The notes below the pieces were generated by a model that saw nothing but the letters and a program-made list of their open reading frames with translations, had not been told where the DNA came from and did no database searches. A program made the position numbers and the translations under genes. Of a stretch of 64,000 nt of DNA, positions 2,590-7,120 are shown piece after piece; within the stretch, counting starts at the first letter, position 1, and each line of letters opens with the position of its first letter. This stretch comes from Eledone cirrhosa (taxonomy: Eukaryota): the NCBI GenBank assembly GCA_964016885.1, contig OZ024740.1:152086001-152150000 (forward strand), read 5' to 3'.

Positions 2590-3232
2590 AAGAATTAAAA
2601 TACTAGAGTGTGTTGGAGTTAAACACCCTCTTCGTATTATAGAAATGACAGTAAAGGTATAGCTCAATGTAATTAAACAGAGCCGAAGAATTATGAAAAT
2701 AAACCAAAGAAGCCTTCAATACATCAAAAGTCTTTATTAGCCAACAATGTTTCGTCCTATTAAGGGCTCATCAGGGCAATTAAAGCTATAAGAAGCACTA
2801 TCGGCCAATACAAGCCAAAAACTCAGAAGAATATGGAGTGTACATACATTAAAGCATAGGAAAATTATCGGGTAAAAATTATCAAGTAAAAATTGCTAAG
2901 GAAGTAAATAACATTTTGAACCATATTACAAATATAGTCCAATGCAAAAACTAAAGCTAAACAAAGGTGGTGATATAGAGCGGGAATTATTGTACTATAT
3001 ATAATATAATATAATATAATATAATATAATATAATATAATATAATATAATATAATATAATATAATATAATTGATAATGATACACTCCATATTCTTCTGAG
3101 TGTTTGGCTTGTATTGGCCGATAGTGCTTCTTATAGCTTTAATTGCCCTGATGAGTCCTTAATAGGACGAAACATTGTTGGCTAATAAAGACTTTTGATG
3201 TATTGAAGGCTTCTTTGGTTTATTTTCATAAT
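2590..3232. mobile_element. Non-coding PLE-type inverted-repeat fragment (arms 2690-2842 and 3080-3232) around (ATAAT)n, flanked by (TA)n
   Basis: About 150-bp arms are near-exact reverse complements, and each carries a hammerhead motif. Confidence 0.8.
3145..3182 (+). ncRNA. Minimal hammerhead ribozyme (minus-strand twin at 2740-2777)
   Basis: GCC-CUGAUGA-GUCCU(uaau)AGGAC-GAAA-CAUUG-UU-GGC, with canonical core and G-C closing of helix II. Confidence 0.85.
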
Positions 3233-3270
3233 ATATACATATATATATATATATATATATATATATATAT

Positions 3271-3917
3271 AGTATATTTGGCAATATACTTAATGCTTAA
3301 TTAAAAAGATTTTGAAGACCTTGCGCTATTATTTTAAAGTAGTGACTATATCACGTACTTCTTTTTTCAACAAAGAAAGGGAGATAAGCTGACAGATCTG
3401 TTTCATACTGTTGGTAATCATCAGAACTTAGCACTCGCCTTTGTCTGTTGTAAATTATAGATGTTGGATTCTTATAGAATTCCAGTGCTCTGAAATAGCG
3501 AGGTCTTCAAAATGTTTTTAATTAATCATACGGTATATTGCCAAATATACTATATATACATCCATGTATACATTGCTATTTCAGATCACCAATTCTAATT
3601 TTCAATTTTTGCTGGACCGGCAATCGCTCTGTATAATCAGTTCCTGATTATTACTTGGATTCTATAAGAATCCAACATCTATAATTTTCAACAGACAAAG
3701 GCGAGTGCTAAGCTCTGATGATTACCAACAGTATGAAACAGATCTATCAGCTTATCTCTCTTTCTTTGTTGAAAAAAGAAGTAAGTGACATAGTCACTAC
3801 TTTAAAATAATAGTGCAAGGTCTTAAAATATTTTTAATTAAGCAAACAGTATATTGCCAAATATATTATATATACATCCATGTATACATCGCTATTTCAG
3901 AGCACCAATTCTAATTT
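3271..3917. mobile_element. PLE-type pLTR fragments in inverted plus tandem arrangement, flanked by (TA)n
   Basis: 3271-3485 is the reverse complement of about 3655-3870. About 3500-3600 repeats about 3818-3917 directly. Hammerhead in both arms. Confidence 0.75.
3387..3428 (-). ncRNA. Minimal hammerhead motif with U.U at the base of helix II (plus-strand twin at 3711-3752)
   Basis: CUGAUGA-U-UAC(caaca)GUA-U-GAAA-CAGAUCUG-UC-AGCU. Palindromic helix III and GUC site. Confidence 0.65.
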
Positions 3918-4253
3918 ATATATATATATATATATATATATATATATATATATATATATATATATATATATATATATATATATATATATATATATATATA
4001 TATATATATATATATATACAGTAGTGGACTAGGTCTAAAAATATTGGTTGCCAGATGAAGGGAGCCCACCTACATATAGAATGCTATCATTTAATTTTTA
4101 TAATGAATAAGTAACATTTTCAAAAATTACATAAGAAGAAACAAAACCGTGCAATCAAATTTTTGTGGAAAAATATCTTACCTTCACCAATAAAAAATAT
4201 TATGTATTTTGCGAATTCAATAATGTCCTTTGGTCTTTCACACTCACTCAATA

Positions 4254-4365
4254 TACGAGGTGGGTCAGAAAAGCTCCAGGACTGATATCACAAAAGCTTT
4301 ATTTCAAACCCAAGCTTCACACTAAGAGTTTTCTTCTTCGAATTAATGCCCCGACACACCTCGTA
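4254..4365. mobile_element. Mini-mariner (MITE) of the same family as 43220-44145
   Basis: TACGAGGTGGGTCAGAAAAG... left TIR joined to a short ...GACACACCTCGTA right end, with TA flanks. Confidence 0.8.
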
Positions 4366-4671
4366 TATATATATCACATAAGAAACTTAGAAACAGTGGT
4401 GCGACGAATAAATTTTTTTAGACATATTACAATCGTTTCTCTGGCGACCAGCTCGAGGCACGATCGATGCAATGATCGAACCTGACTCTCCGTTACTTAT
4501 GTGATATTATACTCTGCTCTGTAAGAGCATCGAGTGTTCAAACGGCCTACCGCTTACGGAGGCTTTAAGCATCCCACATCAATTATGTCTGTGTGTTTAT
4601 ATATATATATATATATATATATATATATATATATATATATATATATATATATATATATATATATATATATA

Positions 4672-5590
4672 TAAAGGTTTACATATATATATAAAGTCAT
4701 AGATATATATGTGTTTTGCAACGGGTCACGTTGTGGCTCAATGAAGAATTAATAAATTAAATAATCAGAGCTATATATCATAAAACATGTCTATAGAATC
4801 ACCAGATAGATTTCTTCATAGGAGCCTTTATACTTATAGCTTGATCTAATTGATTTTTTATATGGTTAATTATGCTAATTGGGAGAGGAAACGGTATATA
4901 TTTTATCTGGTGATTCTATACATATGTTTTATGATATATAGCTCTGATTATTTAATTTATTAATTCTTCATTGAGCCACAACGTGACCCGTTGCAAAACA
5001 CATATATATCTATGACTTTATATATATATATATGTAAACCTTTATATGTAATAATCTCCCGTTAGGTTGAGATACAATTTGGCTGTATTGGGCTGCGTTT
5101 TCTAGCAAAAAGCCTACCAGCCGTAAGCAACTATCACATCCTTTCTAACTTGACCGCTGCTACGTCACGATTCTTAGCCATTTTTTAATGTATTCTTGGC
5201 GTGATCACTGGAAAATTAATTGTCTAAATTTGAGCTAACTCCTGAAGATTCCGAAGCTCTAGATATCCCATGTTATCGGATGTCTTAAAATGCGGACGAA
5301 ACCATGGTAGAGGTAATTAAATATGTACACTTTTCTTCTAGTTTATTTTATACCTAATTCTGTTTAGTTGACTGTATATCTGGTGGATTTATACATGCTG
5401 TCGAAATATTCGATAAATACTCCGTCGTAACCGCCGCGAAGGGGCTGCTTTCGGTTATTTGTCGGAGATTTCTTCATAGGAGCCTTTATTCTTATAGCTT
5501 GATCTAATTGATTTTTTATATGGTTAATTATGCTAATTTGGAGAGGAAACGGTATATATTTTATCTGGTGATTCTATAGACATGTTTCAT
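4672..5590. mobile_element. Non-coding PLE-type element with inverted and direct terminal duplications in (TA)n
   Basis: 4672-4805 is inverted at 4905-5047. 4808-4930 is repeated directly at 5467-5590. Internal hammerhead. Confidence 0.7.
5239..5312 (+). ncRNA. Hammerhead motif with enlarged helix II loop
   Basis: CUC-CUGAAGA-U-UCCG(~39 nt)CGGA-C-GAAA-CCAUGG-UA-GAG. Palindromic helix III. Confidence 0.75.
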
Positions 5591-6364
5591 GATATATATA
5601 TATATATATATATATATATATATATATATATATATGCACCACCTTCACCACTAATTGATTTGACAAATGTCTTTAATCCATTGATACCAAATATTATTTG
5701 GTCAGTAGTTCGTGTGTAAGTATATACATATATATATATATATATATATAAATATATATATATATATATACTTGTGTCTATATTATGTTTGCATCCATGA
5801 ATGAATAGACTTAGTGGAATGTACAACCACTGATTCTAGCTATTTGCACTATCATATTTTTTGGCTTCTAGTAATACCCTGGGTTGCCCAAATGCTTTCC
5901 TTAATTGTTTTATTTATTTTTTTTTTTATGTTATTCTTTCCCTTAGATTTCAGGCATTGGTCCCTAAAATACTACTGTGGGCTCTGCAATGCTACTGTAG
6001 GCTCATGCAATGCTACCGTGGGCCTCCTCATGCAATGCTACCGTGATTAATCTCATTTGCATATGAAGCTGCATAAGTTGGCTCAACTTATAATAAAAAA
6101 GAAATAGGACATCACCAGAGGGCGTTAGCGCCCCGGTGTTTGCATAGCTACGGCTTCCTAAGTCCGAATTTCTTTGGAGATACGAAATATTTATACAAAT
6201 TGTATAAAGCTATGCTTGAAGCGAAATCCTATTTTTTTTATTATAAGTTGAGCCAACTTATGCAGCTTCATATGCAAATGAAATTAATCACCTCATTTAC
6301 ACTGACGAGAAAACTATATATTCTCGCCTGTCTTCTAGTCCAGCAGTCACAAGCGGTGGGAGGG

Positions 6365-6408
6365 ACCGAGCTGACGATGGCCAGTTAAGCCTGAAATGCA
6401 TAGACGGT
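6365..6408 (+). ncRNA. Minimal hammerhead motif in a duplicated/inverted fragment (about 6040-6480)
   Basis: ACCGag-CUGACGA-U-GGC(caguuaa)GCC-U-GAAA-UGCA-UA-gaCGGU. Direct repeat 6107-6160/6428-6480 and inverted repeat 6044-6107/6225-6290 nearby. Confidence 0.6.
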
Positions 6409-6559
6409 TGTCCCCCTTGCTTCTGCTGGACATCACCAGAGGGCGTTAGCCCCCCCGGTGTTTGCATAGCTACGACTTCCTAAAACCATATTTCTTTGGA
6501 TATATATATATGTGTGTATAGATATATATATATATAGAGAGAGAGAGAGATAGATAGAG

Positions 6560-7120
6560 AGAGAGAGATAAATCTACCAAAATATACGGTAGTGTCCAAT
6601 CCGTATGAAGAACTCAATGTAATCCAAATATCATGAAAAGAGAAGATGTATTCAAAATTTTTTCGATGAAAAACACAGGAAAACAGAGTCAAGATAAATT
6701 AATAAAAATAATGAATAAAAACAAAGAAACAGTTCCTTATATTAAAAAATTCATCATTTTACGATCGTTTCTAGGATATATATGTGTGTGTTGGTATGTA
6801 TATCATATAGATCTATGTAAAATGTTTACAACTATCAGAGGGAATATACATACCTACACATATATATGCTGTCTTCAGCATATATATGTACAGGTGTAGG
6901 TATGTATATTCCCTCTGATAGTTTGTAAAAAATTTACATAGATCTATATGATATACATACCAACACACACATATATATCATGTATCATTATATTTTGTCT
7001 GATGAGGACGTACTGTTGTACCTCTGAAATATGTATAATAAAATTTAATTGATCAAAAGAACATCTATTTTATTAATATTTGTATTTTAATATTAATAAC
7101 TCTGGAAAATATATATTGTA
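6560..7120. mobile_element. Fold-back non-coding element, same family as 42555-43100, with hammerhead at 6993-7043
   Basis: About 6775-6865 is inverted at about 6895-6978. UUUUGU-CUGAUGA-GGACGUAC(uguu)GUACCUCU-GAAA-UAUGUA-UA-AUAAAA. Confidence 0.65.

Follow-up and report, generated by a model that had tools for sequence, protein, structure and literature searches.

A train of hammerhead ribozyme-bearing elements strung along (TA)n repeats was analyzed in a 64,000-nt stretch of the Eledone cirrhosa genome (assembly GCA_964016885.1, contig OZ024740.1, positions 152,086,001 to 152,150,000, forward strand), hereafter the window, to which all coordinates refer. The setting is an AT-rich, microsatellite-dense animal genome of 3.0 Gb. 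The stretch is a pile-up of mobile-element ends within TA repeats, composed of the tails of Penelope-like elements (PLEs) and protein-free hammerhead repeat units. The elements were named by their hammerhead cores as A (3148, +), B (3424, −, and 3715, +), C (5242, +), D (6371, +) and E (6999, +), and three more hammerhead families (F, G and I) lie in the same train.

We consider it likely that the train consists of separate insertions at (TA)n, all probably written by Penelope-like, mostly Hydra-clade, reverse transcriptase (RT)-endonucleases. A, E and G are truncated 3' ends of enzyme-coding elements, and B, C and D are protein-free head-to-tail hammerhead units likely riding the same enzymes as circular or multimeric RNA. 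This reading is favored because parent open reading frames (ORFs) were found for A, E and G and closed ORF-less units for B, C and D, and because insertions of both groups share a constant 3' end at TA, a 5' end that varies, an inverted partner and a tail.

Hammerhead motifs in the train and their conservation

The hammerheads in the train are real as motifs. A preliminary description, made by a model from the DNA letters, had placed them at 3145, 3387/3711, 5239, 6365 and 6993, and a core was located at or near each site. A descriptor was formulated only after the motifs had been seen; it required the two core boxes, at least 3 bp in each of helices I and II, and a helix III that is palindromic. 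It matched four sites in positions 2590-7190 (3148, 3424, 5242 and 6999) versus a mean of 0.01 and a maximum of 1 in 400 shuffles that preserved microsatellites. Across the window, 7 matches were found versus a mean of 0.10 and a maximum of 2 (40 shuffles). The motif density is thus not reproduced by shuffled sequence, the check that had been proposed.

The hammerhead is intact at the majority level in all five families, in alignments of 17-24 rows each, several rows being the window copy itself seen via overlapping loci. The window copies carry defects in helix III (3715), at two helix I bases (6371) and in helix II (the left arm of A). A C subfamily of 71% identity differs from C by compensatory changes in helices I and II, and an E relative differs from E by such changes in helix II. 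The majority hammerhead letters of the families recurred in public contigs from one sample of unknown library type, which yielded variants and joints only. Among the 150 of 339 Rfam matches shown, there was no hammerhead; those matches were sub-gathering-score, microsatellite-driven microRNA and similar hits. A first look at the genome gave 1488, 1914, 3387, 2236 and 2180 candidates for A to E, respectively, which are not copy numbers. The claim that the five sequences are mutually unrelated held, as no similarity among them was found at an E-value of 0.05.

Five additional sites of the preliminary description fared unevenly. The site with its core at 10301 passed the descriptor, with the hammerhead core variant U3-A8, and lies in a TA-flanked repeat (10264-10471) present in 16 loci; loose ends of contigs hint at the same variant among B relatives. 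The sites at 20922 and 24175 passed only if a 2-nt bulge or a long helix II was permitted. At 50244, inspection by eye showed the two boxes, helix I and a helix III that is palindromic, but helix II is poor and the site failed both scans; 17856 has the core and helix II only. Another hammerhead-like motif lies at 58669 (−) within an inverted-repeat element with relatives in 9 loci. A relaxed scan of the 720,027 bases of fetched loci gave 230 distinct hammerhead matches under 60 helix III/cleavage keys. Helix III is palindromic in many of them and helix II is long in several; the loci had been picked around hammerhead families, so the 230 matches give no genome-wide rate.

A, E, F and G as ends of autonomous Penelope-like elements

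PLE ends with hammerheads in TA repeats are known biology, found here in new families. A and E were identified as 5'-truncated ends of autonomous Hydra-clade PLEs rather than stand-alone non-coding elements. The A copies have a common 3' end and a variable upstream extent, with a GIY-YIG-type ORF about 2 kb upstream of the end; an endonuclease match 1.8-2.5 kb upstream on the same strand was counted by eye in at least 9 of 45 A matches. Full-length A elements are present at two (L083 and L085) of the six loci that were retrieved to look for long ORFs, each consisting of a pseudo-long terminal repeat (pLTR), a 100-nt leader, a 911/912-aa ORF, a long 3' untranslated region (UTR) and a second pLTR. 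The A parents (L083, L085 and L086) also show a partial tandem of the pLTR with the hammerhead, an inverted 5'-truncated copy and a tail. Their single ORF combines an RT core with a C-terminal GIY-YIG domain (motifs FDI, YRDD and YIG) and bears the Hydra marks RWR, DKT, a CxCX5C linker, CxxC and CxH.

Since the A leader corresponds to window positions 2591-2690, the window copy of A consists of two truncated ends in inverted orientation, one side of which carries a tail. This tail (−) is 99% identical to the interval between the pLTR and the ORF of L083 and L085, where the leader follows the upstream pLTR. The left arm (2690-3070, −), an inverted, 5'-truncated Hydra-clade PLE 3' end with a mutated helix II, is 93-97% identical over 410 nt to L083, L085 and L086, and the right arm (3080-3232, +) is a pLTR with the hammerhead at 3145-3182. 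Inverted truncated ends with a tail are the arrangement drawn for PLEs by Craig et al. 2021 (PMC8557442).

For E (6979-7186, +, hammerhead 6993-7043), the 3' end and tail of a second Hydra-clade PLE, RT or endonuclease pieces lie upstream in 9 of 14 loci, and in L091 the endonuclease and the E end are collinear. Its parent is described from partial copies, and the marks DKT, CxCX5C, CxxC and CxH were assembled from three separate copies, the RWK region lying outside the fetched loci. Inverted ends and a tail are present in fetched E copies. The window copy has no terminal duplication of its own, contrary to the claim that every element has one; the inverted repeat at 6775-6979 belongs to G. 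This sixth family (6568-6979) is the 3' end and tail of a third Hydra-like PLE (6877 to 6568, −) with an inverted arm to 6979. A parent with a Hydra-like endonuclease upstream was found in L141, and the long-helix-II hammerhead, which lacks its helix I 5' strand in the window copy, is whole in other G copies.

Neighbors of the Hydra-type ORFs in the Atlas, at 0.95-0.98, include clusters in which 29-50% of members have GIY-YIG and 18-77% have RVT_1. When the same ORFs were scanned by sequence against Pfam and PDB, nothing relevant was found. The Hydra-clade assignment of A and E follows motifs rather than an RT tree, with the reference proteins viewed as supplement text. The PMC8557442 supplement was searched for five short motifs taken from A, E and D, and none was found. 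Left of A lies F (143-2507), which comprises two 5'-truncated PLE ends in inverted orientation and carries a C-terminal RT piece, GIY-YIG (Pfam E-value 1.2e-4) and hammerheads at 2316 (+) and 387 (−). F has no CxCX5C linker, one of the Hydra-clade marks, and is a PLE of another clade, presumably Neptune-like.

Two further observations concern PLE sequences. A 1130-aa ORF (L082:3343-6732, −) is an apparent chimera of the N-terminal part of another PLE family and the C-terminal part of the A family. GC-rich PLE-like RT/GIY-YIG remnants lie at 17770-19570 (−), with the 17856 motif at the end, and at 63112-63543 (+).

B, C and D are closed units without open reading frames

B, C and D are likely retrozyme-like non-autonomous passengers with PLE-type insertion marks. 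Past the 3' end, the same hammerhead recurs after 316 nt (B), 658 nt (C) or 322 nt (D), and this unit junction is present in 19/32 B, 25/33 C and 30/33 D insertions; an inverted partner is present in 16/32, 16/33 and 24/33. The median insertion length is 399 nt for B, 815 nt for C and 549 nt for D. The majority units measure 317 nt with 33% GC (B), 661 nt with 35% GC (C) and 322 nt with 44% GC (D). In two public sequencing runs from a single sample, the B unit joint is the best supported of the B joints, and the 71%-identical C subfamily also retains the closed unit.

Among the 98 B, C and D copies, chosen as those most similar to the window copy and examined with five protein probes over 1.2-2.5 kb of flanking sequence, none had a collinear ORF. 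PLE ORF matches near C (3/33) and D (6/33) were rejected as parents: five are on the opposite strand, and the four on the same strand belong to G or F or sit behind other repeats. When the majority units were folded as circles, z scores of −7.7 (B), −5.2 (C) and −6.5 (D) were obtained, versus −1.4 (A), +0.7 (E), −1.4 (F) and +0.7 (G) for single-copy 3' ends of equal length and −2.5 to +1.5 for ten random window pieces. Stable circular folds were confined to B, C, D and the further family H among the elements folded.

In the window, B (3272-3916) comprises an inverted arm (3272-3486, core 3424, −), a partial unit (3494-3600) and a full 316-nt unit (3601-3916, hammerhead 3709-3754, +). C (4694-5591) has an inverted arm (4694-4808), a partial unit (4808-4933) and a full 658-nt unit (4934-5591) with a long-helix-II hammerhead (5237-5315, +). 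D (6043-6499) has an inverted arm (6043-6109), a partial unit (6107-6177) and a full 322-nt unit (6178-6499) with its hammerhead at 6365-6408 (+). None of these copies has two hammerheads on one strand.

D was followed in 30 loci selected by the part downstream of the cleavage site, of which L195 and L209 represent a single insertion. In 13 of the 30, a single direct run is longer than one unit, and 26 end at unit positions 57-69, a limit favored by the query, which preferred copies that stop at the T-run. Because D copies span both the cleavage site and the unit junction, the template would be a circle or an uncut multimer.

The preliminary description had regarded all five elements as non-autonomous ribozyme carriers mobilized by PLE machinery. 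This fits B, C and D, which are ORF-less, TA-associated and marked by PLE-type insertion, and fails for A and E. It had also named, as the case against itself, that every fragment is the truncated end of a catalogued autonomous PLE; truncated autonomous ends are what A and E are, but not of the catalogued Hydra-1_Obim, and B, C and D are probably not such ends.

TA tracts look like insertion targets

TA was found within 12 nt of the end in 20/20 C ends, 16/16 E tails, 10/11 G tails and 13/17 A ends, the remaining 4/17 A ends continuing into the leader, versus 2046 of 32561 random positions (about 6%). Many of the non-TA cases of B and D continue into the unit. Among non-inverted insertions, the 5' junction also adjoins TA in 7/16 B, 12/17 C and 2/9 D copies (21/42 overall), and TA at both junctions fits insertion into pre-existing tracts. 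Hammerhead-free repeats occupy the same tracts. The preferred ends of the units lie at short internal stretches of TA, which suggests priming by short homology.

The statement that each element sits between (TA)n runs applies to the train except at the left ends of D (6043) and E (6979), which do not abut TA. The further proposal that the elements seed or extend TA microsatellites was not borne out, given the TA at half of the 5' junctions; an internal (TA)7 is present only in C. Almost all Hydra families insert into (TA)n (PMC8557442), and a PLE of Anolis initiates reverse transcription at an internal position and cuts one strand of AT-rich DNA (PMC11167929).

Proposed mechanism and alternative explanations

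Under the favored reading, a PLE endonuclease would nick a TA tract, and reverse transcription would start at an internal AU-rich RNA site and abort after a few hundred bases. Every insertion would leave flanking TA on both sides as new targets, by which the train would grow. In the case of B, C and D, the hammerhead would cut a multimeric transcript into a monomer, which would close into a circle and be copied for 1 to about 1.7 rounds. Several results weigh against this reading. Two same-strand hammerheads were found in only 1/32 B, 3/33 C and 4/33 D insertions, that is, in short arrays unlike the long arrays of described retrozymes. The D 5' ends are scattered, with 1/30 at the cleavage site and no pile-up. 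No common sequence was found between B, C and D and the ends of A, E, F and G, no RNA dataset was listed among the sequencing runs containing the B unit, and the sampling of B, C and D could miss a rare ORF-bearing parent. In published work, minimal PLE hammerheads cleaved weakly and only as dimers in vitro (PMC4209133), insertion by the Anolis PLE in vitro needed no hammerhead cleavage (PMC11167929), and one of nine Xenopus retrozyme dimers was cleaved (preprint 10.64898/2026.07.22.740005).

The strongest competitor, which we regard as possible although clearly less likely, also makes B, C and D passengers of PLEs but has them copied from uncut linear read-through RNA of tandem sources, the hammerhead being kept and circles having no role. 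It would account for copies that cross the cleavage site and 5' ends that ignore it, and uncut RNA is the main substrate of the Anolis PLE in vitro (PMC11167929); however, tandem sources with two hammerheads are rare (8/98 sampled), and helix covariation with strong self-pairing suggests selection on the RNA fold. That the elements write their own TA tracts by templated or slippage tails, and so seed microsatellites, we judge improbable. TA is commoner at 3' than at 5' flanks, preferred ends lie at the short internal TA runs, and C contains its (TA)7, but the 5' junctions exceed the background several-fold, hammerhead-free repeats share the tracts and (TA)n is a listed preference of Hydra PLEs (PMC8557442).

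More improbable still is that all five elements are truncated ends of autonomous PLEs with the parents of B, C and D unsampled. Such an origin holds for A, E and G, partial tandems, inversions and tails are standard in autonomous PLEs (PMC8557442), and the sampling was biased to close copies. Nevertheless, B, C and D return to their own hammerhead within 316-658 nt, and the absence of a collinear ORF in their 98 copies contrasts with the upstream endonuclease in at least 9/45 A matches. The stable circular folds, seen only in B, C, D and H, and the closed unit kept in the diverged C subfamily also speak against it. Chance motifs in AT-rich fold-back DNA, for which the Rfam result and the imperfect window copies might be cited, have practically no probability left, being refuted by the shuffle test and the intact family majorities, and the compensatory changes are likewise contrary. 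Circular or multimeric passengers beside truncated enzyme-coding ends thus remain the favored explanation.

A U6-like cassette in D and H

D and H possibly carry a U6-type (type 3 RNA polymerase III, Pol III) promoter, predicted from a sequence match. This cassette, new in D and H, is the most novel and least proven part of the analysis. In D, an octamer-like 11-mer is followed by a TATA 43 nt later and the hammerhead 56 nt after the TATA (predicted promoter 6271-6320, +). H is an unrelated 493-nt head-to-tail hammerhead family with internal TA/TG repeats, in which the octamer-like element lies 42 nt from the TATA and the hammerhead follows after 38-46 nt, across subfamilies. It was found as a trimer in L052:1854-3251 (−), as window fragments at 26088-26417 and 49927-49994, and as pieces in 22 other loci, some overlapping.

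In the host U6 genes (three upstream types, 12 loci) and the top U6atac locus, the element lies at −76 to −78 and the TATA at −30; 4/12 U6 loci have an insertion in the upstream region. The element-TATA pattern was found in 3/3 U6 upstream types, in U6atac (L225) and in D and H, and was absent from three U2 upstream types, from both B and C and from four autonomous elements. C does contain an octamer-like word, but this lacks a TATA at U6 spacing and was rejected as a U6 cassette. The pattern, chosen after the fact, arose by chance 4 (D) and 17 (H) times per 100000 base shuffles and occurs once in the window. A T-run precedes the D octamer by about 31 nt in 35/48 copies; in H, the T-run falls immediately beyond the 45-nt interval that was inspected.

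Other features speak against a promoter. The spacing of 43 nt (D) and 42 nt (H) is 3-6 nt shorter than the 46-48 nt of host U6, the spacer is unlike U6 spacers, and copies extend through the T-run that would stop Pol III. At the predicted start, about 30 nt after the TATA, 1/30 D copies begins, which is not above scatter. A tandem U6 gene array (G000:C19:31.78-31.84 Mb; L181, L182 and L184-L186) was also observed, several units of which have a short repeat inserted at the TATA box.

It may be tentatively proposed, with more doubt than confidence, that D and H are self-promoting retrozymes, each unit being a circularly permuted U6-type gene in the order T-run, octamer, TATA, start and hammerhead. 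Dimer read-through and cleavage would place the promoter inside the RNA circle, to be copied by Hydra-clade PLE enzymes into (TA)n. If true, this design would overcome the promoter loss that RNA genes with external promoters suffer, and two unrelated families in one genome would have arrived at it. Beyond the cited works, no published promoter in animal retrozymes and no retrozyme target-site anatomy were found in a search that covered sources other than subscription journals.

Other features of the train and the window

A (TA)41 tract (2508-2589) separates F from A, a (TA)32 tract (7187-7250) closes the train, and further TA tracts lie at 3239-3270, 3917-4018, 4598-4673, 5592-5635 and 5728-5769. 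Positions 4019-4352 hold two short hammerhead-free repeats, TA-flanked in other copies, which we take to be MITE/mariner-like (miniature inverted-repeat transposable element, MITE). The 3' half of an eighth hammerhead family, I, lies at 4414-4586 (−); its first core box is absent in the window copy and present in L025 and L190. Short repeats with a hairpin and CTAG-like ends adjoin the train (5771-6042, 7251-7400 and 10509-10610) and are presumably Helitron-like. Elsewhere, ORFs at 11491-16773 (−), the first with a 69-nt tandem repeat of 17 copies, are assumed to encode a Helitron Rep/helicase, and transposase-like ORFs at 43291-44043 (−) and 38628-40127 (+) are, by our assumption, mariner-like and hAT-like.

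Comparison with known systems

Autonomous ends and ORF-less units are neighbors here and have their insertion anatomy and target in common, which offers a testable enzyme-passenger pair; the A parents have open 911-aa ORFs in families with thousands of candidate copies. The A and E parents share with the Hydra clade (PMC8557442) DKT, the CxCX5C linker, the CxxC/CxH endonuclease, a canonical hammerhead, (TA)n insertions, inverted truncated copies and the tail. The A parent differs in RWR instead of RWK, a length of about 5 kb with a 3' UTR of about 2 kb versus "generally <3 kb", and a 100-nt tail versus 30-40 bp. The Hydra-1_Obim protein (PMC8557442) resembles that of the A parent over its length by eye, but the hammerhead differs. 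Neither A nor E is that family.

B, C and D resemble the MRC1-type Chlamys PLEs, which are non-autonomous, head-to-tail and pLTR-forming members of a microsatellite-biased clade, but these usually have a 3' sequence in common with an autonomous family, and most Chlamys elements lack canonical hammerheads (PMC8557442). Metazoan non-LTR (long terminal repeat) retrozymes (Cervera and de la Pena 2020, PMC7229834; Li et al., 10.64898/2026.07.22.740005) resemble B, D and H as non-coding head-to-tail units (here 316-493 nt) with GC below 50%, a type I hammerhead, a strongly self-paired predicted circle and PLEs in the same genome. B and D lie within the retrozyme range of 150-450 bp and C, at 658 nt, does not, all with GC below 50%. 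Instead of the long arrays of retrozymes, B, C and D form dispersed insertions, mostly of 1 to 1.7 units, that have inverted partners and TA flanks; at least two consecutive hammerhead units, as required of retrozymes, were seen in 8/98 insertions. They appear as new members with clear PLE insertion anatomy. In the available part of the Octopus vulgaris repeat annotation (PMC13282606), the words hammerhead and retrozyme are absent.

PLE mobilization of animal retrozymes has been proposed from co-occurrence and pLTR homology (10.64898/2026.07.22.740005; PMC7761336), the latter seen in 24 of 57 Xenopus retrozyme families (10.64898/2026.07.22.740005); no such homology was found for B, C and D in comparison with the A, E, F and G ends of this genome. 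If the favored reading is true, the short, inverted and tailed B, C and D insertions would be direct genomic evidence of that mobilization. Retrozymes are said in a review to seem promoterless (PMC7761336), whereas the U6-like cassette of D and H offers a concrete candidate promoter for how they are transcribed. Hammerhead repeats with their own promoter have precedents in newt satellite 2 (small nuclear RNA-type, RNA polymerase II) and a schistosome hammerhead satellite (Pol III), as cited in PMC2220036; compared with these, the D and H cassette matches the U6/U6atac rather than the U2 upstream regions of this genome.

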